Source: Desulfamplus sp. (GTDB lineage Bacteria > Desulfobacterota > Desulfobacteria > Desulfobacterales > Desulfobacteraceae). Taken from it: a DNA stretch of 64,000 nt. The notes under the pieces were generated by a model. The model was not told where the DNA came from, did no database searches, and saw only the letters and a program-made list of their open reading frames with translations. Location of the stretch: the NCBI GenBank assembly GCA_015232555.1, contig JADFZJ010000018.1, positions 4,934 through 68,933 of the forward strand, read 5' to 3'. The first letter of the stretch is position 1. Each line of letters starts with the position of its first letter. A program made the translations under genes and the position numbers. Shown here one piece after another: positions 1,759-53,487 of the stretch.

Positions 1759-1810
1759 TTATGCAGGAATTTCAATCAACAATAATTACAGCAAAGCTGA
1801 TTATATTCTA
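1759..1810 (+). repeat. dispersed ~55-bp repeat, copy 1
   Basis: TTATGCAGGAATTTCAATCAACAATAATTACAGCAAAGCTGATTATATTCTA matches the copies at 12502, 18728, 51661, 52981, 53032 and 53432. Confidence 0.85.
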
Positions 1811-1813
1811 AAC

Positions 1814-1843
1814 AAAAAAAGCCACCCTAAAAGGGCAGCTTTT
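1814..1843 (-). terminator. intrinsic terminator of the TPP riboswitch expression platform
   Basis: Minus strand AAGCTGCCCT-TTT-AGGGTGGCTT followed by a U-run, between the aptamer and thiS. Confidence 0.8.
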
Positions 1844-1884
1844 AACGTCAAACAGTATAAAATCAGAACATCATAAAGTTTAAC

Positions 1885-1972
1885 TCATCGCTTCCCTACG
1901 GCAGTATTAACTGCATCAGGTTCAAAGGGTCTGATACGAATCATCTCAGCCTTAAAAACGGCTCCCCCGCAT
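1885..1972 (-). promoter_or_regulatory. TPP riboswitch (THI element)
   Basis: Minus strand GGGGAGCC...GGCTGAGA...GACCCTTTGAACCTGATGCAGTTAATACTGCCGTAGGGAAGC has the canonical CTGAGA, ACCTGAT and GTAGGGAAG motifs upstream of thiSG. Confidence 0.95.
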
Positions 1973-2067
1973 AAATCTATTTTAATATAGATAGGTTATA
2001 AAACTTCTACTGTCAACAATTCATTTGAGTATTATACAACTTCCCTGAAATCATAGAATAATAGCGG

Positions 2068-3162
2068 TTAGATGGCAAGATCCAACTGCTGAATTGTACC
2101 TGCCTTTCCGTTTTCCTCAAGATAGATGCCTGTCCTTCGTATCTGACCAAGAGTATTTTGACTTTGCTGCTGTTTGATTGTAAACTCTGTCTCAGTGCTT
2201 GTAACGGCAATTGCTCCAACACCGCTCTCTTTAAGGCTTTTTAACTGTGCATTTTCTGGTGTATCTCCTGACCAGAGCGACAGCTTTTCAAAGGCAGCAT
2301 CATTTTCATCAATCCATCCGTTTTTATCATCATCAAGCTGTGCAAGCTCTTGAAATCCATTGTTTGAAGCTGGACCAAACATCTCTTTTCCGTTATTTAC
2401 TACTCCGTCTTGATTTTTATCAAAAACAAGAAAACCGCTTCCTGATGATAGCCATGGAATCTCCTCCTCTTTTCCGTCAGAATTAAGATCAAATTTGAAT
2501 TTTACATCAGTCAGTTCTGCTGGTTGACCGCTGAAATTGACAACAAGAGGGTCTATAAGGCTGCTATCTCCCACTATTTGCGATCTGTTTTCTGAATAAA
2601 ATTCACGTTTCATATCAAGGTGCAGTTTGAAATTGATAGATTCTCCGCTCTCTGTTTTAACATTTCCCAAAGCATTAAACTGAGTGGCTTCTGACTCGTA
2701 ATGAGAATTGAATTCTGTTATTCTCACCCGTCTTGGTGCTGATGCAATTGGCTGGCTGCTTTGAGCATTACTATTTAAAGAGTTGTTTGGTATTGAGTCT
2801 GAAGATGATAATAATGTTAAAGATGATAGACTGGATGAAGAAGCCGTTGATGTTCTATCTGTCTGAAATCCTGAAATATCAGTCAATTTAATTTTTTTTC
2901 CCATCATAGCGTCAAGCATTCTCTTCATAGCAGCAAGTTTTGGGTCAGTCGGTGTCTCATCCTCTGGAGAGGCAGGAGGCACATCTGTTTTGGCAGAAAA
3001 AAGTCTTGGAGTAATGTTTATTTTATTTCGTATGGGTGATGATAGTTTAGGTGAAGCTCTATTTCCATGCTCTTCTAATATTTCAACCTCCCTTGTTGAA
3101 ACATGGTTCTCTTCATATTTTCTCTCTGCATTAAAAGATATCTGTGAGGATGCTATTTTCAT
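2068..3162 (-). CDS. conserved hypothetical protein with C-terminal DxDxDG (EF-hand/VCBS-like) repeats
   Basis: 364 aa with DPLVVNF, FDLNSDGKEE, GSGFLVFDKNQDGVVNNGKEMFG and LDDDKNGWIDENDAAF; preceded by a sigma28-type promoter. Confidence 0.75.
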   Translation of the reverse strand: MKIASSQISFNAERKYEENHVSTREVEILEEHGNRASPKLSSPIRNKINITPRLFSAKTDVPPASPEDETPTDPKLAAMKRMLDAMMGKKIKLTDISGFQTDRTSTASSSSLSSLTLLSSSDSIPNNSLNSNAQSSQPIASAPRRVRITEFNSHYESEATQFNALGNVKTESGESINFKLHLDMKREFYSENRSQIVGDSSLIDPLVVNFSGQPAELTDVKFKFDLNSDGKEEEIPWLSSGSGFLVFDKNQDGVVNNGKEMFGPASNNGFQELAQLDDDKNGWIDENDAAFEKLSLWSGDTPENAQLKSLKESGVGAIAVTSTETEFTIKQQQSQNTLGQIRRTGIYLEENGKAGTIQQLDLAI

Positions 3163-3218
3163 CTTTTCCTCCTTTTTCTATGTCGCTTAGATTATCTATA
3201 TTCTCCATCATTTAAATA

Positions 3219-3245
3219 CTATCGGCACAATCTTATTTCAGTTTA
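3219..3245 (-). promoter_or_regulatory. sigma28 (FliA)-type promoter
   Basis: Minus strand TAAA-CTGAAATAAGATTGT(15 nt)-GCCGATAG, against the consensus TAAA-N15-GCCGATAA; 57 nt upstream of the ATG at 3162. Confidence 0.8.
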
Positions 3246-3343
3246 AAAAAACTTGGCTCTTATAGGATTTAGTGGTTTTGATATGGTAAGAGAATATTTC
3301 ATAATGCCATAAAACGTGGCAAAACCCTGATTCACTACCTGAT

Positions 3344-3497
3344 TGAGTTGCTTGTAAAATAAGACCATGAAACACAATAAGAGCCAACCACAAAATATCG
3401 AATTGACAACGCCATGAGTTGCATTACTTTTGAGTTAGATATAAAAAAACTCATATTAAAGCAAATATGCAACTCATATTAAAAAATATTCAACTCA
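3344..3497 (+). promoter_or_regulatory. clpB sigma70 promoter with six TGAGTT/AACTCA half-sites
   Basis: TTGACA at 3403-3408 and TACTTT at 3425-3430. TGAGTT at 3344, 3415, 3431 and AACTCA at 3448, 3471, 3492. Perfect inverted repeat ATGAGTTGCAT (3414-3424) / ATGCAACTCAT (3467-3477). Confidence 0.55.
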
Positions 3498-3510
3498 TGG
3501 AGGAATAAAT

Positions 3511-6195
3511 ATGCAATTCGATAAATTCACAATAAAATCACAGCAAACTATTCAGGCTGCCCAATCAATTGCCTTGAGAAAAAATCATCAGTCAATTGAG
3601 CCTGTCCATATTTTAAAAGCAATGATGGAGGATAAAGATGGGTTTATACCTTCTATCATTAAAAGAGCTTGTGGAATTACAACAGATAGCCAAGTTACAG
3701 AGCAGTTACTCAAAACGATTGAGCGTGCCTTAGATAAATTAGTGCAGGTTACTGGTTCTGCAAGTGATATCTATCTTTCAAAGGATACGAAACGCGTTCT
3801 TGACAGAGCTTTTGTTGAAGCTCAGGAGATGAAAGATCAGTATGTCAGCCTTGAACATATCCTTCTTGCATTAATTCATGTGTCAGGACCTCATCAGGAG
3901 CTATTTAAAGGAGTCGGACGTGATGGTCTGAGCGAAAAAAAAAGTGGTCTCACAAGAGATATGGTTCTATCAGCACTTAAAGATATCCGCGGCAATCAGA
4001 CCATTACAGACCAAAATCCAGAAGAGAAATATCAGGCACTTGAACGATTTGGCAGAAACCTTACTGAACTTGCAAGTGCAGGTAAACTTGACCCTGTTAT
4101 TGGAAGAGATGAAGAGGTTCGGCGAATTGTTCAGGTTCTCTCGCGAAGACGCAAAAACAATCCCGTTCTAATCGGCGAACCCGGAGTTGGAAAAACAGCA
4201 ATTGTTGAAGGGCTTGCCCAAAGAATTGTAGCAGGCGATGTATCAGAGAGTCTTAAAAACAGAAAAGTTATAGCCCTTGATATGGGTGCTCTTGTTGCTG
4301 GTGCAAAATATAGAGGAGAATTTGAGGAGCGTTTAAAAGCAGTTCTCAAAGAGGTTGAGGCTTCACAAGGCGAAGTCGTGCTCTTTATTGACGAGCTTCA
4401 CACAGTTGTAGGTGCTGGAGCTGCTGAAGGTTCAATGGATGCCTCTAATATGCTCAAGCCCGCTTTAGCCCGTGGAACTTTAAGATGCGTGGGTGCAACA
4501 ACCCTTGATGAGTATCGTAAATATATTGAAAAAGATGCAGCTCTTGAGCGTAGATTCCAGCCTGTATTTGCTGCAGAGCCTTCAGTTGAGGCGACAATCT
4601 CAATTTTAAGAGGTCTTAAAGAGAAATATGAGGTTCATCACGGCGTTAGAATAAAAGACTCTGCAATTGTTGCGGCTGCCACTCTATCGCAGCGGTATAT
4701 TGCAGACAGATTTCTTCCAGATAAGGCAATTGATCTTATTGATGAGGCTGCATCTCGCCTTAGAATTGAGATTGACAGTATGCCGCTTGTGATTGACGAA
4801 GTTCAAAGACGAATGGTTCAAGCTGAGATTGAGCGTCAGGCACTAACAAAAGAGAAAGACTCTGCATCAATGGAGAGGCTTGCCAAGTTGGAGAAAAAGA
4901 TTGAACAGATGAAAGCAGACATTGAGCCGATGCGGCAGCATTGGGAGAGTGAAAAAAGGCTTATTCAGGAGATAACCACAATCAGAGAAAAGATTGATCA
5001 GGCACAGACGGAGGCAAAGATTGCAGAACGTGAAGGAGATTTGGCTAAGGTTGCTCAAATTAAGTACGGTACAATCGAAGATTTGCAGCGGCAGATTAAC
5101 GCAAGAAAATCAGAGCTTGACAAACTTCAGCAAGATAAAAGAATGCTCAAAGAAGATGTTGAAGACTCTGATATTGCTGATGTTGTCTCAGCATGGACAG
5201 GTATTCCAGTATCTCGAATGCTAAAAGGCGAGCAGGAAAAACTTGTTCAGATGGAGTCTCATATCCAAAAACGGGTTATTGGTCAACGAAAGGCAATTGA
5301 TGCTGTAGCAAATGCGGTTAGAAGGGCACGTTCAGGGTTGCAGTCAGCAGATAGACCGATTGGAACATTTATGTTTATGGGTCCAACTGGAGTTGGAAAG
5401 ACCGAGCTTGCCAAAGCACTTGCTGAGTTTATCTTTGATACTGAACAGGCAATGGTTCGTATTGATATGTCTGAGTATATGGAGAAACATTCAGTAGCCC
5501 GCCTTATTGGTGCTCCTCCTGGTTATGTAGGATATGAAGAGGGCGGAGCATTGACAGAGGCTGTCAGACGCAGACCTTACGCTGTTCTTCTGTTTGATGA
5601 GATTGAAAAGGCTCACCCTGATGTTTTCAATATTTTGCTTCAGGTGCTTGATGACGGCAGAATGACAGACGGGCACGGCAGGACAGTTGATTTTACCAAC
5701 ACCATAATTATTATGACCTCAAATGTTGGAAGTCAGTTTATACAAGATTCTGGGATATTTATGAGTAATGCCGACAAACTTTCCAAAAAATCAGATTTAT
5801 CAGACATTAAACTTTTTAACAAAAGTATGTCTGAAGTTCTTAAAGCATCATTCAAGCCTGAATTTTTAAACAGAATTGATGAGATAATAACCTTCCAAAA
5901 TCTTTCACAAGAAGATATTAAAGCAATTGCTAAGATTCAGATTAAGGCTTTGAACAAGCGTCTTGCACAGAGAAAAATTGAGGTTAAGCTCTCAGATAGT
6001 GCAATGGAGTTTATTGCAGATAAAGGATACGATCCAGCTTTTGGTGCAAGACCTTTAAAAAGAGTTATTCAGCAGTATATGGAAAATCCGCTTGCAATGG
6101 CTCTCTTAAAAGGCGACTTTAAAGATGGCGATACTATCAATTTTGAAGCAGATATGGATAAGACAGGTGAAGAGAGGCTTAAAATGGTAAAGTAA
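3511..6195 (+). CDS. clpB: chaperone ClpB
   Basis: Two AAA+ modules ([16 protein letters not shown]), coiled-coil middle domain, [26 protein letters not shown] and GARPLKR. Confidence 0.97.
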
Positions 6196-6202
6196 TTTAT
6201 AG

Positions 6203-6234
6203 ACAACCTCACCTAATAAAAAGGTGAGGTGTTT
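6203..6234 (+). terminator. probable clpB terminator
   Basis: ACCTCACCT-AATAAAA-AGGTGAGGT followed by GTTT, 8 nt after the stop. Confidence 0.65.
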
Positions 6235-6459
6235 ATATTGCACCCGCTGACTCTCATAATTCAATAAAAGTGTAACTATTTGATAAATGTTGTAGATCAA
6301 AATAGTATTGTTCAGAATCAGCTTGAGTTCACATATATCCTCAATGATTCATGCTATTCATACGTAGAGAATATAGTTTTTGTTAAAAATGATATGAAAA
6401 AAGAGTTTGTAAAAATCACCAACCCGCATAAATGAATTTATATATAACTGTATAGAACT

Positions 6460-6495
6460 AAAAAAGCCCTTGAGGTTGATTTCTCAAGGGCTTTT
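6460..6495 (-). terminator. terminator downstream of tRNA-Ala
   Basis: AAAAGCCCTTGAG...CTCAAGGGCTTTT inverted repeat with A/T tails. Confidence 0.75.
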
Positions 6496-6526
6496 AGACT
6501 TATATGGAATGTAGTGAAACTGTTTT

Positions 6527-6602
6527 TGGTGGAGCTAAGGGGGATCGAACCCCTGACCTCATGGCTGCCAGCCATGCACTCTCCCAGCTGAGCTACAGCC
6601 CC
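6527..6602 (-). tRNA. tRNA-Ala(GGC)
   Basis: GGGGCTGTAGCTCAGCTGGGAGAGTGCATGGCTGGCAGCCATGAGGTCAGGGGTTCGATCCCCCTTAGCTCCACCA; anticodon arm CATGG-CTGGCAG-CCATG, G3:U70 pair, encoded CCA. Confidence 0.97.
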
Positions 6603-6805
6603 ACAAAAAAAGTAGAACTTAGATAAACGATTATATTTTTTGTGTCAATGAAAAAAAATTTTTCTTTAAAAATAAATATTATAATAATATCCATTGACAC
6701 AAGGATTTATAAAAAGATAAAAGTTCAGTTTTATAAATATATTTTTTGAAATAAGTTATTGTATAAATAAGATGTTAATTATTTAAAGATAGAGTTAAGG
6801 AGATT

Positions 6806-8773
6806 TTGATGCTCAGGTTTATGCGTGAAAATACAGGGTCGTGGATTATTAAGATTATTCTTGGTCTTATTATTGTTGTGTTTATATTCCTTGGCATGGG
6901 CTCATTGGGAGACAACCGTGCAGATCAGGCTGCCATGATCAATGACATCCCAATCACCATTGATGAATACAACCGTTCATATCAAAATACGATTGAGCAG
7001 ATGAGGCAGCGATTTGGAAACAGCTTAAATGACGAACTGCTTAAGATGCTCAAAGTAAAAGAACAAGCTATGGATAGACTTATTGAAGATCGTCTTATTG
7101 CGGACGAGGCAGATAAGCTTGATATAAAGGTTTCTGATAAAGAACTTCAGGATTCACTGGTTTCTATTCCTGCATTTCAAAAGGATGGTGTATTTGATAT
7201 TCAAACCTATCGGATGGTGCTTACAGCCAACAGATTAGTACCCGCAACTTTTGAAGCCATGCAGCGTCAGACACTTCGGCAGTCTAAGTTTACAGATTTG
7301 GTATTAGGCGGCGTTAAAGTCTCTGACCTTGAAGCCCGAGAATGGTATATTCAAAACAACAGCGAAGTAGCTGTAGATTATGTTAAGTTTGATCCATCAT
7401 CATACACAGTTGCCCTCGATGATACTAAAATCAAGGAGTATTACGAGAAAAACAAAGATAATTACAAATCTGAACCTCAACTTAAGGTTCAGTATATTGG
7501 ATTCATGCCGGATGTTTATAAGGCAAAGGCAAGCGTGACACCAGAGAGTATAAAATCATACTATACTTCTAATCCTGATGAGTTCACTACACCTGAACAG
7601 GTGGAAGCCAGCCATATTCTAATTAAAGTGGATGAAACAGCACAACCAGAGGTAGTGGAGTCAGCCAAAAAAGAGGCTGATGATATATATAAAAAAGCTG
7701 CTGCTGGTGAAGATTTTGCACAGCTTGCTAAAATGTACTCTCAGGATCCATCAGCACAAGAGAACAACGGCTATCTTGGAAAATTTGCAAGGAACAGAAT
7801 GGTAAAGCCTTTTGAGGAGAAAGCATTTTCCATGAAAGCAGGCGAAATTAGCGAACCTGTAAAGACTCAATTCGGCTGGCACATAATACAGGTAAAATCA
7901 AAAACAGAGGCATCAAAGAAAACTCTTGCAGAGGCAACCCCACAGATAAAAGAGAAATTGTTAGCTGATGAGAGCAGAAATCTTGCATATAATGCAGCAG
8001 GTGAGTCATTTGATGCTGTTGTTGACGGAGACTCTCTTGAGCAAGCGGCTATTATTACAGGTAACAAGGTTATTGAGGTCGGTCCATTTACCATGAAAGG
8101 ACCAGATAAACTCCCCGAACAAGGACAAAATACCAATACAGACAATACAAATAGAGAGTTTCCGAATGGTCCTGAATTTGCTATGAAGATATTTAAACTC
8201 CCTATCAATGAGATAAGCGATATAATTGAAGTCGGAAACGCCTATTACATTGTAAAACCAATAGAAAAAAAAGAGCCTGTGATACTATCTTTTAATGAAG
8301 CAAAGGAGAGAGTAACAGCATCTCTTAAATCTGAACTACAAATTGAAGAGACAAAAAAAGCGGCTGAAGCATTTTTGGCTTCTGTAAAAAATGGTGAGAA
8401 AAACGCTGATGCTGCTACACGATTTATCAATGCTGCTAAAGAGAAGATGTTTGATGTGAAATCCACACCCCTTTTTAAGAAGGATGGCAATATACCTGAA
8501 CTCGGTAGAGAGCCTGAAATAGCCTCTGCTGCATTCAAGCTGTCAGAAAAAAACAGATTGGTATCTGAAGTTATAAAGGCTTCTGATGGCTCTTATTATG
8601 TTATTGCCTTTAAGGAGAAAAAGATACCAGGAGAAGATATCATCACTGAAAATCTTGCATCTATGAAAAAGCAGCTTATCAGCACAAAACAGGGTGCAAT
8701 ATATAGAGCATGGATCGATCAGTTGAAGAAAAGCAGTAAAATTGAGATTAAGCCTGGCTTAATTGACGGCTAA
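6806..8773 (+). CDS. ppiD: PpiD-like periplasmic chaperone (SurA N-terminal plus parvulin PPIase domains)
   Basis: N-terminal MLRFMRENTGSWIIKIILGLII membrane anchor; parvulin motifs EQVEASHILIK, GEDFAQLAKMYSQD and PVKTQFGWHII. Confidence 0.88.
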   Translation: MMLRFMRENTGSWIIKIILGLIIVVFIFLGMGSLGDNRADQAAMINDIPITIDEYNRSYQNTIEQMRQRFGNSLNDELLKMLKVKEQAMDRLIEDRLIADEADKLDIKVSDKELQDSLVSIPAFQKDGVFDIQTYRMVLTANRLVPATFEAMQRQTLRQSKFTDLVLGGVKVSDLEAREWYIQNNSEVAVDYVKFDPSSYTVALDDTKIKEYYEKNKDNYKSEPQLKVQYIGFMPDVYKAKASVTPESIKSYYTSNPDEFTTPEQVEASHILIKVDETAQPEVVESAKKEADDIYKKAAAGEDFAQLAKMYSQDPSAQENNGYLGKFARNRMVKPFEEKAFSMKAGEISEPVKTQFGWHIIQVKSKTEASKKTLAEATPQIKEKLLADESRNLAYNAAGESFDAVVDGDSLEQAAIITGNKVIEVGPFTMKGPDKLPEQGQNTNTDNTNREFPNGPEFAMKIFKLPINEISDIIEVGNAYYIVKPIEKKEPVILSFNEAKERVTASLKSELQIEETKKAAEAFLASVKNGEKNADAATRFINAAKEKMFDVKSTPLFKKDGNIPELGREPEIASAAFKLSEKNRLVSEVIKASDGSYYVIAFKEKKIPGEDIITENLASMKKQLISTKQGAIYRAWIDQLKKSSKIEIKPGLIDG

Positions 8774-8787
8774 TTCAGGAAATTATT

Positions 8788-12234: not shown

Positions 12235-12501
12235 ACTTCTCCTTGGTATCAACTCTTTTATCATTCAAATAAAATAAACATTGTTGCTGAATCAAAGCTC
12301 CTAAGTCACGAGAATAATAACAATATCATACACAACTTTAATGCAGCTATTGTTGGATTAAAATTCCAAAACTCCTGAACAAAAGAACAAGAAATATAAA
12401 CAACGTGAAAATTGTGGTTTCATAGTATGTATGACCATGTTTTGTCAAATCATTATCAAGGGGATTATCACTTTTTATGCAGTGTCGCTAATTTATCATT
12501 A

Positions 12502-12548
12502 AGGAATTTCAATCAAACCAGAATTACAGCGAAACTGCTTATGTTCAG
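12502..12548 (+). repeat. dispersed ~55-bp repeat, copy 2 (degenerate)
   Basis: AGGAATTTCAATCAAACCAGAATTACAGCGAAACTGCTTATGTTCAG. Confidence 0.75.
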
Positions 12549-12597
12549 ATGAATAGTTCCTAAAATTGAGTTTCAGTTTATTTGGTTCTTAATGTAA

Positions 12598-13086
12598 TTA
12601 ATCTAAATTTTCAGTAAACTGCATTAAATTACGGTCCTTTTTTACCTTTGCAGGATCAAATATCCTGCCATTTATGGCAATATATACGCCTGATGGAAGC
12701 GTCTGAACCGCTGCTACAGCACTGCCGAGATTAAAAGATGCGTCACTTGACTTGAAACATGCAGGTTTCATGGCTCCTGTAAGGACAATCACCTTATCTT
12801 CAATTGCCTTGAGTGCCATCGCTGTATCAACCATAGTATCTGTTCCGTGGGTAATCACAATATGCTTGCTATCTTCCTGTAAAACTGCATCGTGTATCAT
12901 TTTGCGATCTTCATAAGTCATATCAAGAGAGTCTTTTTGCAGCAGGGAGACAACCTCGTAATCAAAATTAACTCTTGCTTCACTTATAATATTCTCAATT
13001 CCAGGAGGTCCTACCTGATAATTACTCAACGCATCAAAATAGACTTTATCAATAGTACCACCAATGGCAAAAAATTTTATTTTCAT
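12598..13086 (-). CDS. single-domain L-asparaginase-like protein
   Basis: IGGTIDKVY, KDSLDMT, IVITHGTDTM, VLTGAMKPA...SDASFNLG; only the N-terminal asparaginase domain (162 aa). Confidence 0.88.
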   Translation of the reverse strand: MKIKFFAIGGTIDKVYFDALSNYQVGPPGIENIISEARVNFDYEVVSLLQKDSLDMTYEDRKMIHDAVLQEDSKHIVITHGTDTMVDTAMALKAIEDKVIVLTGAMKPACFKSSDASFNLGSAVAAVQTLPSGVYIAINGRIFDPAKVKKDRNLMQFTENLD

Positions 13087-13161
13087 CTGCTTTGCTCCTC
13101 AATTGTTACTATAATTTATTGGTATTTTACCTGCCATAATAAAAGGAGTATATAGAAAAAT

Positions 13162-14067: not shown

Positions 14068-14209
14068 TTGACATTTAAATAAATCAGATATAAACTTATT
14101 AAACTTTGTGTCAATAAAGTTTCCAATAGGGTAAACAAAATTCAAAAAAAGAGGATTTATAAAGTTATATAAGGAGAATTTACCCTTTTTACTATAAAGG
14201 AGGTGCAAG

Positions 14210-17632: not shown

Positions 17633-18670
17633 TTATCCATTCTCCTGTGTAAAATCTGCAAGCTGTTTGAGCTTTTCCATTGCCTTTCCAGAATCAATAG
17701 ATTCAGTTGCCTTTTTTATACCGTCATTTAAATTTTCAGCAGCATCAGTAGCAACCAATGCTGCGGCACTGTTAAGAAGCACAATATTTCGTTTTACCCC
17801 CTTCTCTCCATTCAAAATAGCTGTGGTAATTGAGGCATTAAAGTTTACGTCACCGCCTTTTATCTCTGAAGAGTCTGCATATTCACCAAAAAACTCTACT
17901 GGATCAAGATCGTAAGAGCGGATAATTCCGTCTTTTAGTTCTGAAATTCGGGTTGGGGCACAGACTGAAATCTCGTCTAAACCATCGTGCCCATGAACCA
18001 CAAATGCGTGGTAAGTACCAAGAAGTTTTAATGCCTGTGCAAACATTTCAGTAAGTTGCGGAGCAAATACTCCTAAAAGCTGGCATCGTGCAGCAGCAGG
18101 ATTGGTCAAAGGTCCAAGCATGTTAAAGATACTTCTGATCCCAACCTCTTTTCTCGCCTTTGCAGCATAACGCATGGCACTGTGAAAAGTTGGGGCAAAC
18201 AGAAATCCGATTCCGATTCCATTGACAGCCTCCTCAACAACCTCTGGCTGAGTGTTGATGTTGACCCCTAAAGCCTCCAAAACATCTGCACTTCCGCATT
18301 TGCTTGAGATGCTTCTGTTCCCATGTTTTGCAACGGTAACTCCACATCCTGCAACTACAAAGGCTGTGGTAGTTGAAATGTTAAAAGAGCCTGACAAATC
18401 TCCGCCTGTGCCGCAGGTATCTACAGCCTTGTTAGAAACAGTCTGGATTCTCGCGGCTTTTGCCCTCATTGCACGGGCAGCCCCTGCAAGCTCCTCAAAT
18501 GTCTCACCTTTGGCTGCAAGTGCACCTATAAATGCACCAATCTGTGAATCTGTAATTGTGCCAGAAAATATATCGGACATCATGTTGGACATCTGTTCTT
18601 CTGACAAATCCTGACGTTTGACAATTATTTTAAGATAGTCGGTAAAGTTCATCTGTTTATTATACTCCAA
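17633..18670 (-). CDS. trpD: anthranilate phosphoribosyltransferase
   Basis: DTCGTGGD, FNIST, VAKHGNRSISSKCGSADVLEALG, FNMLGPLTNP and VHGHDGLDE; the start may be ATG at 18652. Confidence 0.96.
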   Translation of the reverse strand: MEYNKQMNFTDYLKIIVKRQDLSEEQMSNMMSDIFSGTITDSQIGAFIGALAAKGETFEELAGAARAMRAKAARIQTVSNKAVDTCGTGGDLSGSFNISTTTAFVVAGCGVTVAKHGNRSISSKCGSADVLEALGVNINTQPEVVEEAVNGIGIGFLFAPTFHSAMRYAAKARKEVGIRSIFNMLGPLTNPAAARCQLLGVFAPQLTEMFAQALKLLGTYHAFVVHGHDGLDEISVCAPTRISELKDGIIRSYDLDPVEFFGEYADSSEIKGGDVNFNASITTAILNGEKGVKRNIVLLNSAAALVATDAAENLNDGIKKATESIDSGKAMEKLKQLADFTQENG

Positions 18671-18727
18671 GTTTGTTTATGCACTAAATTATTATGTATC
18701 AAATTTTAGTGCCTATTTAATAATTAA

Positions 18728-18785
18728 TTATTCAGGAATTGCAATCCAACAATAATTGCAGCAAAGCTGCTTATGTTTCTGATAT
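18728..18785 (+). repeat. dispersed ~55-bp repeat, copy 3
   Basis: TTATTCAGGAATTGCAATCCAACAATAATTGCAGCAAAGCTGCTTATGTTTCTGATAT. Confidence 0.85.
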
Positions 18786-18856
18786 TGTGATTTTATGAAT
18801 GATTACAGTCTGATAGTTATTTTGTCAAGATTTTTGTTTCTTTTTATAGAAACAAA

Positions 18857-19912
18857 TCACAGCACTGTTGATAATCTGCAAGCTACCTTAGTTTTAAGCT
18901 CGTTCAAATGGCAAACATTAAACTCTGCTGGAATAGCTCTCTGTTTGGCAAGTTTAAGCAAAAGGGAAAAGTGTTTTTCGACAAACTGTTGATCATCAGC
19001 AAAAAAGAGGATTTCAGGGGCAGCATTGATAAGGGCACGGCAAACCTCGTTGCTGTGTATTCTCAAGTCTGTCGTTGCACTGAAAAATTTATCAATATCT
19101 GTCTCTGACTGAATAATATTTGATATTTCTGAGGAAGAGAGAGGCTTGGAACAGAGCATTTTCCAGCTTTTTACGATCTTTGGCTGTGCAAAATCTTCGG
19201 AAAAACGGTAAGCCGAAAAGAAATTATCATTATCCAGAAAAAATGTCCTTGAAAAACCCAATGTTGCAAGACCTGTAAAGCAGGCAGAAGGGCAGAATAT
19301 GTCCTCTCTTGTGCCTGCAAAATCTGCCCATCCCCAAGGGTCAATCAATACAGCAAGAGGACCCTTGTTGAGCTTTGCGATCTCTCTTGCAACGCCCCCT
19401 TTCCCTGTCCAGCCGTCAACAAAAATTATGGTTCTGTCAGGAAAATCTCTCTCTATTGCCGAAAGTGCCACCTTATCAATGCCAATACCTACAAAAAGTG
19501 ACAAAGCTGCACCAACTGAACCAGGAAGCATCTGGCAGAGCCACTCTGTTATTGGCACTCCAGCCCTTAAAATTGAGACAAATAGAATTTTTTCAGGATT
19601 TGGCTGCCAGATTAAAATTGATGCTGCAAGTTTTCGAGCTGCCATATAAATTTTAGATTCAGATTTGTCGCTTGATTTAACTTGATGCCTGAATGCAGCT
19701 TCAACCTCCAGCCAAAAAGCATCGCTCAAATTTGGCTCAGGAGAAGGAGTTGACCAAAAAGTTATGCTGCCGTTATATGCTTTGCTCAGGGGACGAAAAA
19801 GATGAAGCTGGTTAAAGGGGTGAACTTCTTCCTCAAGTTTCAGATAAAAACGCTGATTCCATAGGAGATTATTAATTAAATATCGGTTTAACTTCAATAC
19901 CATGCTCTCCAA
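18857..19912 (-). CDS. StiP / PRTase_1-like protein of Ter-associated stress gene clusters
   Basis: FVSILRAGVP, GIGIDKVAL, IFVDGWTGKGG, DIFCPSA...GFSR and C-terminal NEVCRAL resemble the StiP family (SLARAGxP, FVDGWTGKG, GExTRVL); start uncertain. Confidence 0.72.
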   Translation of the reverse strand: MESMVLKLNRYLINNLLWNQRFYLKLEEEVHPFNQLHLFRPLSKAYNGSITFWSTPSPEPNLSDAFWLEVEAAFRHQVKSSDKSESKIYMAARKLAASILIWQPNPEKILFVSILRAGVPITEWLCQMLPGSVGAALSLFVGIGIDKVALSAIERDFPDRTIIFVDGWTGKGGVAREIAKLNKGPLAVLIDPWGWADFAGTREDIFCPSACFTGLATLGFSRTFFLDNDNFFSAYRFSEDFAQPKIVKSWKMLCSKPLSSSEISNIIQSETDIDKFFSATTDLRIHSNEVCRALINAAPEILFFADDQQFVEKHFSLLLKLAKQRAIPAEFNVCHLNELKTKVACRLSTVL

Positions 19913-29109: not shown

Positions 29110-29273
29110 AATTAACATTATGAATATAAGCCGCTTCGCTGCAATTTTACCAGCCTACTGCTTTTTCAATGTTTAATTATAAGGCTTTCAGAATTACCCG
29201 CATAATTAAAAAGATATTGAAAAACTATGATTTTCTGCATATATTAATCAGCTTTACAGCTTTATAATATGAA

Positions 29274-40734: not shown

Positions 40735-40740
40735 AACAAA

Positions 40741-44055: not shown

Positions 44056-44061
44056 ACTAAT

Positions 44062-45672: not shown

Positions 45673-45684
45673 GAATATAAAATA

Positions 45685-46467: not shown

Positions 46468-46487
46468 AACCTGATACTTTTTCTAAG

Positions 46488-47933: not shown

Positions 47934-47969
47934 ATATCTTTTATATATGAGACACAAAATTTAGGATTA

Positions 47970-47999
47970 TAAGAGCCTGTTTAAATATTCAGGCTTTTA
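47970..47999 (+). terminator. hairpin after purF that begins with the MITE terminal sequence
   Basis: TAAGAGCCTGTTTAAA (identical to target plus left end of the MITE), closing with CAGGCTTTT. Confidence 0.5.
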
Positions 48000-48016
48000 A
48001 TCTTAGGAGTTGCACC

Positions 48017-49102
48017 ATGAAAAAACAGACGGTTGCATTTTCAAAAAACTCATCAAATCTCTTTTTTCACATTTTGACAAAGTGTAATTTGTCCTGCCGC
48101 CACTGTTACATAAATACAGAACAGCATGGAACAAATACCTTGAGTATTGAAACGATAAAAGAGTGGCTATATCTGTTTGCTCAATTTTCTAAAAAATCTG
48201 AACAGATTAATGTTATATTTTTAGGTGGAGAGCCGACTCTTCACCCTGATTTAGCTATTGCAATAAAAGAGGCAAGAAGGCTTGGATTCAAATCTATCAC
48301 TATTGATACTAACGGCTATCTTTTCCACAACATACTTGAAAAAATCACTCCAGATGATGTTGATTTTATCAGCTTTTCATTAGATGGAGCAACTGAAGAG
48401 ACTAACGATTTTATCCGAGGAAAAGGCAGTTATCAAACTGTAATTGCAGGAATCAAAAAAGCTGTGGATTTGGGATTTTCGACCTCAATGATCTATACGG
48501 TCAGTTCTGATAATCTGCATGAGCTTGCACTTATGCCAAATTTACTTAAATCTCTTTTGAGCAAAGGTGCTGGAATTGAGCGTTTTTTTATACAAGTCGT
48601 TGGTATTCGTGGCTCATCAGCAGATAAAAGTAAAACGAGCATAGACGAATATGAAAAAAATAAAGCACGAGACGAAAAGATAGAGACTATCAATCGTCAA
48701 GTATCTAAGGAGTCATGGCTTGAAACAGTGCCAGAGGTGGCTCATCAAGTGGCACAACTGGGGATTACAGTCACATATCCTAAGGTGTTTCTTGAAGATA
48801 CAGAGAAGTTTGAGTGTGCAGGAGTTGTTGCTGACAACTACTTTATATTTCCTAATGGTAGAGTTTATCGCTGCCCTTTGTGCGAAGATTATCCGCTTCA
48901 TAGTATTGAAATAATTGGTAGTGATCGCGTTATCGCCCCAACCCTCAAAATTAATGAGAGCGATCTTTTTGAACTCAACATTCCTGAAGGGTGTGTGATG
49001 AACAAACTTATTCAGCCCGGAAATTTGGAGTATAATAGCGATGGCACTCCTTGTTATAAAATTGCCTGCTGTATGCTAAAAGAGGAGATATCAAAGAGTT
49101 GA
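48017..49102 (+). CDS. radical SAM protein with Cys-containing C-terminal (SPASM/twitch-like) region
   Basis: CNLSCRHC, LGGEPTLHP, SFSLDG, FPNGRVYRCPLC and terminal ACC. Confidence 0.88.
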   Translation: MKKQTVAFSKNSSNLFFHILTKCNLSCRHCYINTEQHGTNTLSIETIKEWLYLFAQFSKKSEQINVIFLGGEPTLHPDLAIAIKEARRLGFKSITIDTNGYLFHNILEKITPDDVDFISFSLDGATEETNDFIRGKGSYQTVIAGIKKAVDLGFSTSMIYTVSSDNLHELALMPNLLKSLLSKGAGIERFFIQVVGIRGSSADKSKTSIDEYEKNKARDEKIETINRQVSKESWLETVPEVAHQVAQLGITVTYPKVFLEDTEKFECAGVVADNYFIFPNGRVYRCPLCEDYPLHSIEIIGSDRVIAPTLKINESDLFELNIPEGCVMNKLIQPGNLEYNSDGTPCYKIACCMLKEEISKS

Positions 49103-49120
49103 TTGAGCTTTTTGAACCAT

Positions 49121-51640
49121 TCACAACACACTGGCAACTGCTCTTGACAACTGTTCTATTGAATAGGGCTTTTTGAGGTATCCCCCTATACCCATCTGAC
49201 AAGCCATTTTCACATCTTCGCTTTCTGAAAAACCACTTGCAATAATTGCCTTTTGTAGTGGATTTGTCTGAACAATCTGCTCATAGGTCTCACGTCCATT
49301 TATCCCTGGTGCCATTATCATATCAAGCAATACCATATCAACTCTATTGGACTTTAGATACTCTACAGCCTTTTCTCCTGACTCTACACTAACTACTTCA
49401 TAATTCAAAATAGTGAGCATACGGGTAGCAACATCAATCTGACAAGGTTCATCATCAACCACAAGAATCTTCTGTCCATTGCCCCGTAACAGTTCTACGT
49501 TTTTTGAATATCTCTCTTTTTTGTCATTACTGTTTATCTTATCCAAAGATGCAGGCTCAATTGAGGGAAAATAGAGATCAAATGATGTTCCATTGCTGCT
49601 GCTTTTGACAACAATTGTGCCATTGTGATCTTGAACAGTATTCCATACAACAGTAAGCCCAAGCCCTGTTCCGCTTTTACCCATGACTTTTCTGGTGTAG
49701 AACGGCTCAAAAATATGTTTAAGATCGTTATCAGATATCCCCTTACCAGTATCAGTGACATTAAGAACAGTATAAGTCCCCTGTGCTACTCCTTTAGATG
49801 TGGCATCTTCTTCATCAATAAGCTCGTTGCGAGTAGAAATTGAAACGCTACCTAAACCGTTAATAGATTCTTCCGCATTCATCATAAGATTCATTATGGT
49901 TTTTATGATATGAATCCCTGAACAGGATATGCTGGCACAATCAGGAGCAAGATGCGTGTTATACTCAACACTGAAATTAGACTCTTGCAGCTTCTGAAAC
50001 TCAGGAGAATCAAGATATTGTAGAATAAGTTCATTCAAATTTTCGATATTTCTGCTGTTTGCCGCACCTCGTGCAAGGGTAAGAAGATCAGCCACTACTG
50101 AGGCCGCTCTCTGCCCTGACTCCATCATAGCTCTTACAGGCGGTTCAAGATCACTCCCTTCAGGAAGCTGCATTAGAATAATTTCAGGATAACCGATAAC
50201 GCCAGATAGAATATTATTGAGATCATGTGCAACACCAGCAGCAAGCACTCCAACCGCCTCCATTTTTTCTGCCCTATGAAGACGCTTTTGACTCTCAATA
50301 AGTTCAGATGTTCTCTGTTCAACCTTCTCTTCAAGATCGTTTACAAGAGAGTCAATACGCATTGCCATTAAATTAAATGTACGGTTAAGTTGCCCCAGTT
50401 CGTCTGAGCCATCTTCATCAGAAGATATTTTCACATTTTCAGAAGAGCCACCACCCATTTTGGGGGGTTCATCTGTGTTATTTATAGGAAATTGCATATT
50501 ATTCTGTCTAAAGGCTGCCGCCATATCTGTCAAAGCTGTTACTCGTTTTGTGATGCTGACATTTAGAATCTGAAAAATTAATATAGCAAAACAGATACCT
50601 ATAAAAGTTACCATAGTTATAATTGCAGTTGAGACAAGATAAGAATTAGTGATTCCCGCACTCGATTTCTTTAACTCCTCTTCCGCAAGTTTTACAAGGG
50701 TTTTGGAAATAAGATCGACAGCATCAGCCTGAATGGAAAAGTCATTCATTTTACCTTTGAGTTGTACATCAACTGAAACTATCTCTTCAGCAATCTTAAG
50801 CCACTGTTCAGTAAGATCAATCAGCTTTTGACGCTGCACTTGATTGATGTAGATAGAATTGAAAATCTCATCTTTAAGTGTAAAAGCCAAATTAAAGGCA
50901 GACTGCATTAAAAAACGCTGGCGGCTTATTCGATATTTAAAACCTAAAATGTTGATCTGATAAGCTAACTGCTTCATATAGCTCACTTTTGAATCAATAT
51001 CAGAAGAAGTGGTTTTAGTATTAAATTCAGATGTCAGAGTGTCAAATTCAGAGAGAATATTCTCAAAACAGCGGTCAAAGCGTGCCTCCAGCCCCTTTTC
51101 TGGCAGAAACAACTGTGTTGCCAATTTTACAGATTCAAGGGTTGTCTCTGAAAAACGGTTCGCAAAGGAGAGATAACGATTGAGATCAATATGTTTTTTT
51201 TCAAGAGTTGGCTTGATGTTGACAATTGGTTCTATGTAGGAGCTTTTCCGATGTTCTAAATCAGATGTTGAGAGCATCGCTTTTAACATCAAGCTATCCT
51301 TTAGCACCCGTTCAATCTCTTTTATTGATGGCTCAACATACTTTTTACGTGCATTTTCAAAGCCAATCAGATGCTGTATAAGAAAAAATGTGTTAGTAAG
51401 TCTCCTTGCTCTCTCCATACCTCTGTCCATCTCAAGGACTAACTGCTGTATCTTACCGCTAAAGTGAATGGATCGTTCCGCATTTGATACTGAACGTAAG
51501 GCAATATAACCTGTCAGAGCCACAATGATTATTAAAATCAGTAACAGTCCAAAAGCAATGCCAAACTTGTAAGAGATATTCATCCTTTGCCATATTGACT
51601 TGGTTACTGACCAACGTGTTATAGATTTAGCAGAACGCAT
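49121..51640 (-). CDS. hybrid sensor histidine kinase (TM-HAMP-HisKA-HATPase-REC)
   Basis: AAGVAHDLNNIL, IFEPFYTRK...GTGLGL and VLLDMIMAPG; start possibly ATG at 51583. Confidence 0.92.
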   Translation of the reverse strand: MRSAKSITRWSVTKSIWQRMNISYKFGIAFGLLLILIIIVALTGYIALRSVSNAERSIHFSGKIQQLVLEMDRGMERARRLTNTFFLIQHLIGFENARKKYVEPSIKEIERVLKDSLMLKAMLSTSDLEHRKSSYIEPIVNIKPTLEKKHIDLNRYLSFANRFSETTLESVKLATQLFLPEKGLEARFDRCFENILSEFDTLTSEFNTKTTSSDIDSKVSYMKQLAYQINILGFKYRISRQRFLMQSAFNLAFTLKDEIFNSIYINQVQRQKLIDLTEQWLKIAEEIVSVDVQLKGKMNDFSIQADAVDLISKTLVKLAEEELKKSSAGITNSYLVSTAIITMVTFIGICFAILIFQILNVSITKRVTALTDMAAAFRQNNMQFPINNTDEPPKMGGGSSENVKISSDEDGSDELGQLNRTFNLMAMRIDSLVNDLEEKVEQRTSELIESQKRLHRAEKMEAVGVLAAGVAHDLNNILSGVIGYPEIILMQLPEGSDLEPPVRAMMESGQRAASVVADLLTLARGAANSRNIENLNELILQYLDSPEFQKLQESNFSVEYNTHLAPDCASISCSGIHIIKTIMNLMMNAEESINGLGSVSISTRNELIDEEDATSKGVAQGTYTVLNVTDTGKGISDNDLKHIFEPFYTRKVMGKSGTGLGLTVVWNTVQDHNGTIVVKSSSNGTSFDLYFPSIEPASLDKINSNDKKERYSKNVELLRGNGQKILVVDDEPCQIDVATRMLTILNYEVVSVESGEKAVEYLKSNRVDMVLLDMIMAPGINGRETYEQIVQTNPLQKAIIASGFSESEDVKMACQMGIGGYLKKPYSIEQLSRAVASVL

Positions 51641-51660
51641 AAGATTTTTCTCTCTATTTT

Positions 51661-51716
51661 ATTATTCAGGAATTTCAATCAACACTAATTGTAGCGAAAC
51701 TGCTTATATTCTGATA
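51661..51716 (+). repeat. dispersed ~55-bp repeat, copy 4
   Basis: ATTATTCAGGAATTTCAATCAACACTAATTGTAGCGAAACTGCTTATATTCTGATA. Confidence 0.85.
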
Positions 51717-51731
51717 TGTAATTTAGAGGTT

Positions 51732-53135
51732 TTATTCAGAAGTGTTTGGATTATAAACAAAGATAACATTGGACTGAAGGGCTTCAACCCCGCCATTCGG
51801 CTCATCTAACCGAAGCACATTAAAAACAGGATATGCACAATCACCAAAAAGATCGCAGTTAAGTGAACCGCTGACTCCTTCAATCTCTCGTCCATGATAG
51901 AGAGCATCTCTTAACGCCTGCCTTCCAATGCGTAAAGTTCCATCTTTTTCCTTGGAAGATGCAGCTTCAATTGCCTTGAAAAGCAGCATTGCAGCATCAA
52001 ATGCACATAAATAGTAACTTGTAGAAGGAAACTCACCATATTTTTTAGTATAGCTGACTTTAATATTGTTGGTGCCAATTCCCCTACAGTATGAAGGTCC
52101 TACAAAATAGACTCCCTTTCCATAATCTTTTACACTTTGGATAAACGAGTTTTCAATTAGTGCCCCATCAGTCATCATTATAATCTTTTCCATGCCAGCA
52201 GTTTTTTTAGCTTGAATCAAAAGATGATTCCCTTCAGGCTGAAACAGCGGAAAGAATACAAATTCTGCACCAGAGAGCTTAACAGCCTCTATAACTGGCT
52301 GCATCTCTTTATCTCCTTTATTAATGGCAGCATCAAGCACAACATCTCCTCCAAGCTGTTTAAAGGCATTGATAAATCCAATCGTCATGCCAGTGGTGTA
52401 GATATCTCCATCATTGATTGTAGCAGCCTTTTTAACTTTAAGTTCATGCCATGCAAAAATGGCAGCAGCTTTACCTGCATGTTCATCGTTGGCAGCAGTT
52501 CTGAAATAACCAGCCTGCCAGTGAGTTGCCCTTTTTCCATTTACAGAGGTGAGAAACTGAGCACTGTTGTTTCCCGAAATCATCGTAAGACCAGCCTTGC
52601 TCATAATTTTTGAGGCTGTGACTGCCGAACCTGAACAGGTAGTTCCAAAAATGGCTATTGTCTGCGGGTCCGCGATAACCTTTAAAGCGGCATTTGCACC
52701 ACCTTCGGGTGTACATCCGCTATCTTCAATCTGAAGCGAAATCGGGTGGTTGGCTATTGTGTTGTTCCATCTCTCCATTGCAAGTTCAAGCCCCCGTATC
52801 TGCTCCTGCCCTAAAGGAGCAATATCTCCGCTCAATGCCTGAAGCACGGCTATTTTGAATGGCTCACCCTCATTAAGATAGACACATCCTATGGTATCTG
52901 TGCATTCGGAAGTTTTAGAATCATTGGTTGCATTAATTTTGTCACATCCTGAAAATAACAAAAACTGAAATACAAAGAAAATAATCAGTTTCGCTACAAT
53001 TATTGTTGGATTGAACTTCCTAAACAAAAACATAATCAGCTTTGCTGTAATTATTGTTGGGTTGAAACTCCTAAACAAAAAAAATAAAAAATATATACAT
53101 ACAAAACAAAATTTTTGAGGTGGTGCTTCCTGCAT
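51732..53135 (-). CDS. branched-chain amino acid type (LivJ-like) solute-binding lipoprotein with repeat-expanded signal peptide
   Basis: GGAGGAAAA-ATG at 53135, lipobox LFSGC at residues 60-64, EDSGC, GTTCSGSA, YFRTAAND and AFDAA. Confidence 0.87.
   Translation of the reverse strand: MQEAPPQKFCFVCIYFLFFLFRSFNPTIITAKLIMFLFRKFNPTIIVAKLIIFFVFQFLLFSGCDKINATNDSKTSECTDTIGCVYLNEGEPFKIAVLQALSGDIAPLGQEQIRGLELAMERWNNTIANHPISLQIEDSGCTPEGGANAALKVIADPQTIAIFGTTCSGSAVTASKIMSKAGLTMISGNNSAQFLTSVNGKRATHWQAGYFRTAANDEHAGKAAAIFAWHELKVKKAATINDGDIYTTGMTIGFINAFKQLGGDVVLDAAINKGDKEMQPVIEAVKLSGAEFVFFPLFQPEGNHLLIQAKKTAGMEKIIMMTDGALIENSFIQSVKDYGKGVYFVGPSYCRGIGTNNIKVSYTKKYGEFPSTSYYLCAFDAAMLLFKAIEAASSKEKDGTLRIGRQALRDALYHGREIEGVSGSLNCDLFGDCAYPVFNVLRLDEPNGGVEALQSNVIFVYNPNTSE
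52981..53082 (-). repeat. dispersed repeat, copies 5 and 6 (two tandem 51-bp units, in frame)
   Basis: ATAATCAGTTTCGCTACAATTATTGTTGGATTGAACTTCCTAAACAAAAAC and ATAATCAGCTTTGCTGTAATTATTGTTGGGTTGAAACTCCTAAACAAAAAA are reverse complements of the consensus. Confidence 0.88.
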
Positions 53136-53431
53136 TTTTCCTCCAGACATATTATGATTTTTTATTAATTTATATGACTTTATAAGTTTATAAATTTGAT
53201 ATCCGTAACATAACAACTATATTTTTACAAGTCTATTTTTTTATACTTAATTAAATAATTTACCCCCCCCCATGAGACAAATGTAACGACGATTATCATA
53301 CTTATTGTATAAAATATCATACATAACAGTTTCATAAACCTATCTCTCTATCTTCAAATATTACTTGAGAGAAAACGATCTGTTTGGTAGTAATATCCCC
53401 CGATCTCATAACAGCAAGAAGTAATTTTTTT

Positions 53432-53487
53432 ATTATTCAGGAATTTCAATACAACAATAATTACAATGAAGCTGCTTATTTTCTAAT
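53432..53487 (+). repeat. dispersed ~55-bp repeat, copy 7
   Basis: ATTATTCAGGAATTTCAATACAACAATAATTACAATGAAGCTGCTTATTTTCTAAT. Confidence 0.82.

Follow-up and report, generated by a model that had tools for sequence, protein, structure and literature searches.

A 51-nt high-copy repeat in Desulfamplus as a probable miniature of an IS91-family insertion sequence

IS91-family and ISCR elements move neighbouring genes by rolling-circle transposition, and to our knowledge the minimal requirements of their ends are known only from a few laboratory constructs, at about 80-90 bp per end. Elements of the IS91 family have two different ends and a target tetranucleotide next to oriIS, and do not duplicate their target; in IS801 and IS1294, terIS contains a single subterminal palindrome next to the cleavage site 5'-GTTC (PMC13181058). 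Reduced forms have been described both in the laboratory, as a mini-IS91 consisting of 89 bp of terIS and 82 bp of oriIS (PMC13181058), and in nature, as IS801 miniatures of 229, 360 and 679 nt that arose by one-ended transposition in Pseudomonas syringae (PMC3189936). Our literature searches found no paper on natural high-copy ori-ter miniatures of IS91-type elements and nothing relevant on repeats in Desulfamplus.

Here we analysed a short dispersed repeat in a 64-kb stretch of Desulfamplus DNA (the window) and in related genomes. The repeat is selfish DNA of a known kind, unusually small and high-copy, and not a regulatory RNA. Judged from its sequence, it very probably derives, as a non-autonomous miniature, from an insertion sequence of the IS91 family (HUH Y2, rolling-circle), a reading to which we assign a probability of about 0.9.

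Copies in the window and across the genus

A 19-mer search allowing up to 3 mismatches located 6 sites in the window versus 0.08 expected by chance, and an nhmmer profile recovered all 7 full copies, whose 51-nt units lay within 0-6 nt of the positions given in the original prediction. The count of five intergenic and two coding copies made there was also right, the coding pair being tandem copies in the signal peptide of a lipoprotein.

Copy 1 (1759-1808, plus strand, 50 nt, E = 2e-12) occupies part of the thiS leader, with the TPP-riboswitch terminator on one side and the Shine-Dalgarno sequence of thiS on the other, and is transcribed in reverse (R) orientation together with thiS-thiG; it is missing in genomes G013 and G005, whose flanks are 94-97% identical. 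Copy 2 (12496-12546, plus strand, 51 nt, E = 4.5e-13) is intergenic, within a stretch of about 630 nt that is not present in G013, and about 110 bp from it lies a degenerate copy with small insertions in inverted orientation (12324-12382, minus strand, E = 4.8e-4, model positions 8-54). Copy 3 (18728-18778, plus strand, 51 nt, E = 1.2e-16), 58 nt upstream of a trpD-like gene (17633-18670, minus strand; Pfam Glycos_transf_3), stands at a break in synteny with G005 and G013. Copy 4 (51662-51711, plus strand, 50 nt, E = 8e-14), 22 nt upstream of the start of a hybrid histidine kinase gene (49121-51640, minus strand), is directly preceded by a target-like TATTTTA at 51655-51661; the syntenic locus of G005 has a clean 58-nt gap where this copy sits, and the syntenic stretches of G003 and G010 are also without it. 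Copy 5 (53433-53483, plus strand, 51 nt, E = 3.7e-13) is intergenic, 45 nt upstream of a purine nucleoside phosphorylase-like gene (53528-54355, plus strand), and is missing from the syntenic G005 locus. A metagenome scan with this neighbouring phosphorylase protein returned no close relatives, the best match having 74% amino acid identity. The coding pair, copies 6 (52977-53027, minus strand, E = 1.2e-12) and 7 (53028-53078, minus strand, E = 1.7e-13), forms a head-to-tail doublet with copy 7 as the upstream and copy 6 as the downstream unit, inserted in frame in a periplasmic-binding lipoprotein whose G005 ortholog has neither unit. A solo fragment of the terIS end, AATTGCAGCGAAGCGGCTTATATTC, was found at 29122-29146 (minus strand, E = 1.3e-3, model positions 34-58).

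The 3.8-Mb Desulfamplus metagenome-assembled genome (MAG) that holds the window (G000) contains about 166 matches at E < 1e-3, distributed over 148 loci (130 single and 18 double), which roughly bears out the expectation of hundreds of copies genome-wide. The flanks of these copies were unique, indicating that in G000 the copies do not mark the ends of some longer repeat or IS. Across 14 genomes of the genus, copy numbers were 0, 1, 1, 3, 7, 7, 10, 27, 33, 35, 121, at least 136, at least 136 and at least 140, with no more than 135 candidates scored; outside the genus, a single copy turned up, in one other genus, and a further 25 genomes of the family or order had none. Comparison with the closest relatives, the check that had been proposed for mobility, revealed 9 loci (12 units) whose orthologous sites are empty in the sister species G005 and/or G013.

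Among the 18 doublets, 17 are head-to-tail with a period of 51 nt. Identity between the two units of a doublet was 0.79, versus 0.80 for random pairs; since the units are as diverged as random pairs, doublets represent separate insertions beside a resident copy, and an origin by local tandem duplication was ruled out.

A direct join of two IS91-type ends

A full-length IS with both ends of the repeat was found in a congener, Desulfamplus MAG nS315bin44 (G004), which supports the proposal that the repeat is a very short non-autonomous mobile element. This IS spans 1,579 bp (L010:1574-3152) and, in transposase orientation, has AGAAC|ATAAGCAGCTTCGCTGCAATTATTGTTG as its left end and GAATTGAAATTCCTGAGTAA|CAAAATA as its right end. 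Its ORF pieces (L010:1634-2707) match PF14319 Zn_Tnp_IS91 (3e-9) and PF04986 Y2_Tnp (6e-18 and 8e-11), all above cut-offs. The nhmmer model aligned at positions 2-31 to the ori end and at positions 26-59 to the ter end. Both matches are on one strand and are separated by 1.5 kb, and the ends of the IS are the two halves of the short repeat. A second G004 copy is 90% identical, with contig-end fragments besides, and the transposase gene is frameshifted in both copies. The transposase showed no DNA similarity to the named ISs searched.

On the F strand, the mobile unit opens with the last 20 nt of the parent's oriIS (TTRYTCAGGAATTTCAATYC), and the last 31 nt of its terIS follow without a spacer; this sum of 51 nt matches the period of the head-to-tail doublets. 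The subterminal palindrome of the parent's ori end, ATTCA-TCAG-TGAAT, is missing from the 20-nt ori part, a point that weighs against the IS91 reading. The ter part comprises AACAATAATT, the palindrome GCAGC-GAA-GCTGC, TTAT and a terminal GTTC at a sharp right boundary. Of the 98 copies scored, 66 carry GTTC there, and ATTC and GTTT are the next most frequent. An internal stem had been noted as kept across variants: the stem itself is present, with 87% of cells paired, but its covariation did not exceed that of shuffles, so its persistence among variants gives no sign that structure is under selection. The ori end GGATTGAAATTCCT aligned with the oriIS of ISCR27, GGTTGAACTTCCT (sequence from PMC8894482), sharing TTGAAnTTCCT, and 1-8 of 2000 shuffles scored as high; the match to ISCR1 was weaker. 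As the same junction is common to all genomes, one internal deletion probably made the mini-element once.

The ends had been described as imperfectly inverted, which did not hold, as the left end does not match the reverse complement of the right end and the left flank is instead a degenerate direct copy of the right end. Nor did we find a target duplication in the range of 2-9 bp: the two flanks shared k-mers (k = 2-9) no more often than shuffled pairings did, whether the unit was delimited at 51, 58 or 59 nt. The flanks adjoining the ori end (n = 107) were TTTA in 32 cases, GTTC in 13 (mostly doublets), TTAA in 8, ATTT in 6, TTCA in 5 and CTTG in 3. The left-flank motif TATTTTA (TATGTTC in doublets) resembles the ter end in an AT-shifted form, and could also be part of the element.

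By analogy with IS91, IS801 and IS1294, a cognate transposase acting in trans would nick the element at its ori end and behind the terminal GTTC, and one strand would then be transferred to a new site without duplication of the target, the ori end being set beside a target similar to the ter end of the element itself. This target would be TAT-TTTA for most solo copies and the TAT-GTTC of a resident copy for doublets, the latter giving rise to 51-nt head-to-tail pairs. We infer the cleavage positions and the single-strand intermediate of the mini-element from these relatives. As G004 and G012 yielded the only IS copies, and these carry frameshifts or other disruptions, mobilisation in trans is deduced rather than seen.

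In sequence terms, the features fit elements of the IS801/IS1294 type. The parent IS combines Zn_Tnp_IS91 and Y2_Tnp with two unlike ends and no target duplication, its ter end has one subterminal palindrome followed by 5'-GTTC, its ori end abuts a ter-like motif that may be the target, and its size of about 1.58 kb is typical of this branch. It differs from those elements in its host, a marine genus of Desulfobacterota, in having broken genes in all copies found, and in its AT-rich TAT-TTTA flank, the dominant TTTA departing from the canonical GTTC/CTTG target. Like the IS801 miniatures and mini-IS91, which move with transposase supplied in trans, the Desulfamplus element is gene-less and keeps the essential ori end. 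However, the IS801 miniatures are low-copy, each a continuous stretch of the right end bounded by a surrogate tetranucleotide, and have no ter palindrome, whereas the Desulfamplus element is an ori-ter fusion; at 51 nt (20 + 31), it is far below the laboratory minimum tested, and a genome holds from 120 to at least 166 copies of it. Non-autonomous Helitrons and Helentrons are likewise rolling-circle transposons reduced to two asymmetric ends, with a hairpin a few nucleotides from the 3' end, no target duplication, high copy number, head-to-tail arrays and a persistence beyond their autonomous partners. Helitrons are far larger, their insertion point lies between an A and a T, and the enzyme class differs, being RepHel with a helicase in Helitrons and a bacterial Y2 transposase here. 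The repeat family is in this sense the bacterial counterpart of those Helitrons that have lost their genes and crowd the genomes of eukaryotes.

Other readings of the repeat

A variant that shares the IS91 origin takes the whole 58-59 nt (TATTTTATTA...GTTC) as the mobile unit, inserted without a sequence-specific target, with doublets formed by recombination or by overlap of similar end motifs. We consider this variant unlikely. It is favoured by the conservation of TATTTTATTA in G003, G008 and G010 even beside a GC-rich, unrelated outer flank, and by the occurrence of TATTTTG/TATGTTT at the corresponding place in both full-length IS copies. However, doublets and triplets have a period of 51 nt with a single TATGTTC per junction, the left motif aligns with pre-existing G013 sequence at C18:119471, and IS91-family elements require a flanking target next to oriIS (PMC13181058). 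The left motif also carries 0.2-1.3 bits per position against about 1.4 for the right, and this lesser conservation is the pattern of a tolerated target and not of a copied sequence. The IS91-derived 51-nt unit meets an obstacle of its own at the thiS site, where the relatives have TTATATCT exactly at the place of the right end of the G000 element, with no relationship on the side of the G000 left flank. This is not the pattern that a simple insertion would leave, and it counts against our preferred reading.

Copies might instead have been co-opted by the host as portable expression signals, either as an outward promoter or as a weak bidirectional terminator or mRNA-stabilising hairpin, which we regard as quite improbable. 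Orientation relative to genes is biased (co-directional R:F 60:28, p = 8e-4), and when the loci are read in the R orientation, 84 of 125 are followed by a gene start, often at a distance of 13-60 nt. This bias could reflect selection or function rather than purely selfish spread, and expression signals would account for both the orientation and the position near gene starts; a preference for TAAAAT-like, -10-like target sequence, however, gives the same bias without function. The ori end contains a -35-like TTGGAT 16 nt from a -10-like TAAAAT flank, and outward promoters near oriIS are described for ISCR1 (PMC6218425), but a promoter scan did not call the copies, and a constitutive promoter at copy 1, downstream of the TPP-riboswitch terminator, would defeat the riboswitch. 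For the terminator version, the hairpin followed by a T-rich run was flagged as terminator-like on both strands. Against either version, the neighbouring genes have no common function, the same genes in sister species are without copies, and no covariation was detected.

A REP/REPIN-type element moved by a RAYT (Y1 HUH), or a palindrome-associated element derived from IS200/IS605, is very improbable. The repeat is similar to REP/REPIN-RAYT systems and to MITEs (for example Correia and MITEPsy1) in being short, mostly intergenic, high-copy and non-coding, with hairpin potential (a stable GCGAAGC-type mini-hairpin) and some copies tolerated in frame inside genes, and the genome has two Y1_Tnp genes; but neither gene (C51:26698 and C36:38350) has copies beside it, pairs are head-to-tail and not inverted, and both ends match a Y2-encoding IS of the IS91 family, not a Y1 element. 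The REP/RAYT reading is contradicted by these Y1_Tnp loci and by the orientation of the doublets, and the MITE-like part of the original prediction failed with it, as the repeat has neither the terminal inverted repeats nor the target-site duplication that define a MITE, nor any link to a DDE transposase.

The alternative suggestion of a repeated RNA or protein-binding element is not supported either, and a conserved family of structured small RNAs or cis-regulatory RNAs is hardly credible: two small stems can be drawn and many copies lie in 5' leaders or between operon genes, but RNAalifold gave no consensus structure on either strand, hairpin covariation was no higher than in shuffles, mutual information revealed no pairing signal beyond a flank-type correlation, Rfam gave no match at gathering score or at E <= 1, and copies occur in both orientations and range from 0 to at least 136 within one genus. 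The covariation tests already contradict a structured RNA. Among minor candidates, a Bacteroidota-type promoter or leader was dropped once the host was Desulfamplus, the sigma-54 and IHF consensus sequences did not match by eye, and a relation to CRISPR repeats, considered for an ATTGAAA-like motif, was rejected, the CRISPR repeat of the genome, GTTATCTATCCCCATGAGGGGTTATGAGAG, being unrelated.

Age of the copies and their effect on genomes

The original prediction had proposed looking for a cognate transposase flanked by the repeat; a cognate one exists in the congener, of IS91 type and not a RAYT, and none is present in the G000 assembly. The assemblies of the four highest-copy genomes (G000, G003, G008 and G010) contained no cognate IS or transposase, and when 14 genomes of the genus and 151 of the family were screened for a cognate transposase that is still intact, only the broken copies of G004 and G012 were recovered, all other IS91-like genes being at most 38% identical. 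G000 has a single IS91-like gene, on C36; it shares about 30% identity with the G004 transposase and is likewise disrupted. Copies in G000 are about 11% diverged from the consensus; given this divergence and the lack of an assembled cognate transposase, they are probably old and by now probably immobile relics.

More speculatively, the 51-nt ori-ter fusion might be a complete and efficient rolling-circle substrate, the smallest natural transposon of its class, which burst independently in several Desulfamplus lineages, outlived its transposase and prefers -10-like TAAAAT sites, the ori end rebuilding promoters at gene starts, with some copies domesticated as leaders, signal-peptide extensions or operon spacers. 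We offer this extended scenario as a conjecture that is more probably wrong than right in full. A natural family of more than 100 copies built from 20 nt of ori and 31 nt of ter allows the minimal substrate and the choice of target to be defined directly and in testable form.

Much of the odd intergenic sequence that is conserved among Desulfamplus MAGs is explained by the repeat, and anyone searching these genomes for regulatory RNAs or motifs should mask its copies first. The repeat also accounts for some assembly breaks and for in-frame protein insertions of 17 codons, the length of copy 6 in the lipoprotein signal peptide, where the TTATG of copy 7 supplies a possible internal ATG.

Copy number and anatomy of the repeat

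A search of the window with the first 19 bases of the repeat as originally reported (≤3 mismatches) returned 6 sites against 0.08 expected, and a profile built from the copies recovered all seven dispersed copies of the original prediction. Two further minus-strand pieces came out of the profile search: an eighth, degenerate copy at 12324-12382 and, at 29122-29146, a fragment holding 25 nt of the right end. Across the whole Desulfamplus assembly (G000; 3.8 Mb, 106 contigs, 96% complete), a refined profile (E<1e-3) identified 166 copies at 148 loci, 130 of them single and 18 double, with no longer array, and 17 of the 18 doublets were head-to-tail at a period of ~51 nt. Mean identity of the copies was 88.5% to the consensus, TATTTTATTATTCAGGAATTTCAATCCAACAATAATTGCAGCGAAGCTGCTTATGTTCT, and 80% to one another. 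Each copy had unique flanks, indicating that the repeat does not form the end of any longer repeated sequence in this genome. Its CRISPR arrays, at the start of contig C6 and from C18:181605 onward, carry a repeat (GTTATCTATCCCCATGAGGGGTTATGAGAG, with 33 and 15 occurrences) that has no relation to the dispersed one.

The right limit of the repeat is sharp, directly past GTTC(T), and conservation is lower over the 9-10 nt at the left. These left nucleotides proved to repeat the right-end TTATGTTCT directly, in degenerate form, and are not the imperfectly inverted counterpart that had been proposed, and no target-site duplication was found at any plausible boundary. The stem GCAGC-GAA-GCTGC was paired in 87% of cells, its covariation did not exceed that of shuffled data, mutual information revealed no paired columns, and RNAalifold returned no structure on either strand. 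Rfam gave no match to the repeat at the gathering score or at E≤1; its only features in the window were a TPP riboswitch and two tRNAs.

An IS91-family parent and its two ends

In Desulfamplus MAG nS315bin44 (G004), a pattern scan returned loci that carry no more of the repeat than its right 33 nt, which there end a longer repeated sequence. This sequence is a 1,579-bp element (extracted locus L010:1574-3152) whose ORF pieces match Zn_Tnp_IS91 (PF14319) and Y2_Tnp (PF04986), thus supplying the cognate transposase-bearing IS envisaged at the outset. In transposase orientation the element starts AGAAC|ATAAGCAGCTTCGCTGCAATTATTGTTG and ends with GAATTGAAATTCCTGAGTAA, then CAAAATA. These ends match the two halves of the repeat, which is therefore a fusion of 20 nt from the parent ori end (TTRYTCAGGAATTTCAATYC as read on the F strand) with 31 nt from its ter end (AACAATAATTGCAGCGAAGCTGCTTATGTTC); the sum, 51 nt, equals the doublet period. 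The ori-ter junction was identical in every genome sampled, and this single shared junction points to the mini-element having arisen once.

Members of the IS91 family have two unlike ends, no target duplication, a target tetranucleotide beside oriIS, and a single subterminal palindrome adjoining the terIS cleavage site, which is 5'-GTTC in IS801 and IS1294 (PMC13181058). The Desulfamplus repeat fits in its unlike ends, its palindrome beside GTTC and its lack of target duplication, and the motif beside its ori end may correspond to the target tetranucleotide. Its ori end also has TTGAAnTTCCT in common with the published oriIS of ISCR27 (PMC8894482). The nearest described relatives are the IS801 pieces of 229, 360 and 679 nt that arise by one-ended transposition (PMC3189936) and the laboratory mini-IS91 with ends of 89 + 82 bp (PMC13181058), while non-autonomous Helitrons come near in function; in the literature searched, no natural high-copy ori-ter miniature was described.

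In the assemblies, the parent IS was found only in G004, as at least two copies and some fragments at contig ends, every one of them carrying frameshifts or stops. Among the other genomes, G012 holds one relative at 65-70% identity, which appears interrupted by ~1.9 kb of inserted DNA (G012:C7:1263652-1266681), and G009 a small fragment. Neither the parent nor pieces of it were found in the four highest-copy assemblies, including G000, where the sole IS91-like gene (contig C36) is ~30% identical to the parent's and disrupted by another IS. This unrelated gene (C36:4300-6300, locus L138) encodes a zinc finger and the HUH motif HPHVH, and is split, the interruption being a DDE-type transposase gene on the opposite strand. 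Since multi-copy ISs are often missing from MAGs, the absence of the parent from assemblies is not proof; together with the 11% divergence of the copies, it suggests that present-day copies are relics of old lineage-specific bursts.

Target choice and doublet formation

Directly outside the ori end, solo copies show TAT-TTTA (TTTA in 32 of 107), and doublets show TAT-GTTC, which there is the adjoining unit's ter end. The repeat may therefore be described as one that would prefer targets resembling its own ter end, as IS801 and IS1294 do, in which target and ter site are both GTTC. That TATTTTA is instead part of the element seems unlikely: it is conserved even in the GC-richer flanks of other genomes, but the 51-nt doublet period and the lower conservation of the left motif argue against its inclusion, as does locus C18:119471, where the left motif aligns with sequence already present in the related genome G013.

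Units within a doublet are as diverged as random pairs (identity 0.79 versus 0.80), which rules out local duplication and indicates separate insertions beside a resident copy. In a triplet from another Desulfamplus genome (L036, G008:C33:11162-11268), the leading unit is old and diverged and the two after it are nearly identical.

Distribution, empty sites and gene context

When one genome of each species was scanned for the exact pattern, the motif turned up only in MAGs of Desulfamplus and in a single MAG of an uncultured Desulfobacterales. A sequence-only covariance model run over 41 related genomes counted 0, 1, 1, 3, 7, 7, 10, 27, 33, 35, 121, at least 136, at least 136 and at least 140 copies across Desulfamplus genomes, with scoring limited to 135 candidates; another genus had one copy, and 25 further family and order genomes had zero. 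Apart from that one copy, the repeat is limited to Desulfamplus, with very uneven counts. The well-preserved copy outside Desulfamplus (L022, G015:C3:1864083-1864140) suggests horizontal transfer or an older origin.

The closest relatives of G000, G005 and G013 (genes ~77-91% identical), have 7 copies each. Consistent with the mobility originally proposed, orthologous sites in G005 / G013 lack the window copies at 1759, 51662, 52977/53028 and 53433, and the C18 loci 105648 (doublet), 110905, 117951 and 119471 (doublet) are likewise empty there. The 51662 site is also empty in G003 and G010, which are more distant yet high-copy. The clearest empty site is the thiS leader, with flanks 94-97% identical. 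Here copy 1 sits between the terminator of the TPP riboswitch and the thiS ribosome-binding site, a position that makes strong outward promoter activity of the repeat unlikely. The riboswitch, with its terminator hairpin, controls thiS-thiG (window 1806-1978, minus strand, Rfam 73.8 bits).

Between terminator and thiS, the G000 leader exceeds those of G013 and G005 by ~107 nt, which comprise the mini-element and ~55 nt of A-rich sequence. The two relatives carry a ter-end-like TTATATCT or GATTCT exactly at the position of the G000 element right end (GATTATATTC), and nothing in them corresponds to the G000 left flank, which includes ~55 nt of T-rich sequence. A ter-like GCTTATTTTTT is also present at the empty C18:105648 site in G013. 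Such sequences could mean either that targets resemble the ter end or that deletions between similar end motifs left a footprint. Elsewhere in the window, the copy that precedes a trpD-like gene (18670-18860) sits exactly where synteny with both G005 and G013 is lost, and G013 is without ~630 nt around the inverted copy pair 12324-12546 (region 12264-13160), which adjoins a 162-aa asparaginase N-terminal ORF (12598-13086); it may be that these copies lie at points of rearrangement or deletion.

A crude ORF call placed 12 of 137 copies within ORFs. Between co-directional genes, the reverse (transposase-direction) orientation ran with the genes in 60 cases versus 28 against (p=8e-4), and a gene start lay on its downstream side at 84 of 125 loci, often 13-60 nt off. 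Possible explanations are a preference for -10-like TAAAAT targets, selection against the F orientation, where the hairpin precedes a U-rich run, and a strand bias of single-strand insertion. Within coding sequence, the doublet at 52977-53078 contributes 2 x 17 in-frame codons to the signal peptide of a periplasmic-binding lipoprotein (52977-53135, minus strand), the 34 extra residues being LFRSFNPTIITAKLIMF + LFRKFNPTIIVAKLIIF. In the G005 ortholog, which is without them, the peptide as far as the lipobox Cys is a normal one of 21 residues, and an internal ATG (TTATG) in the upstream unit would restore a signal peptide of normal length.
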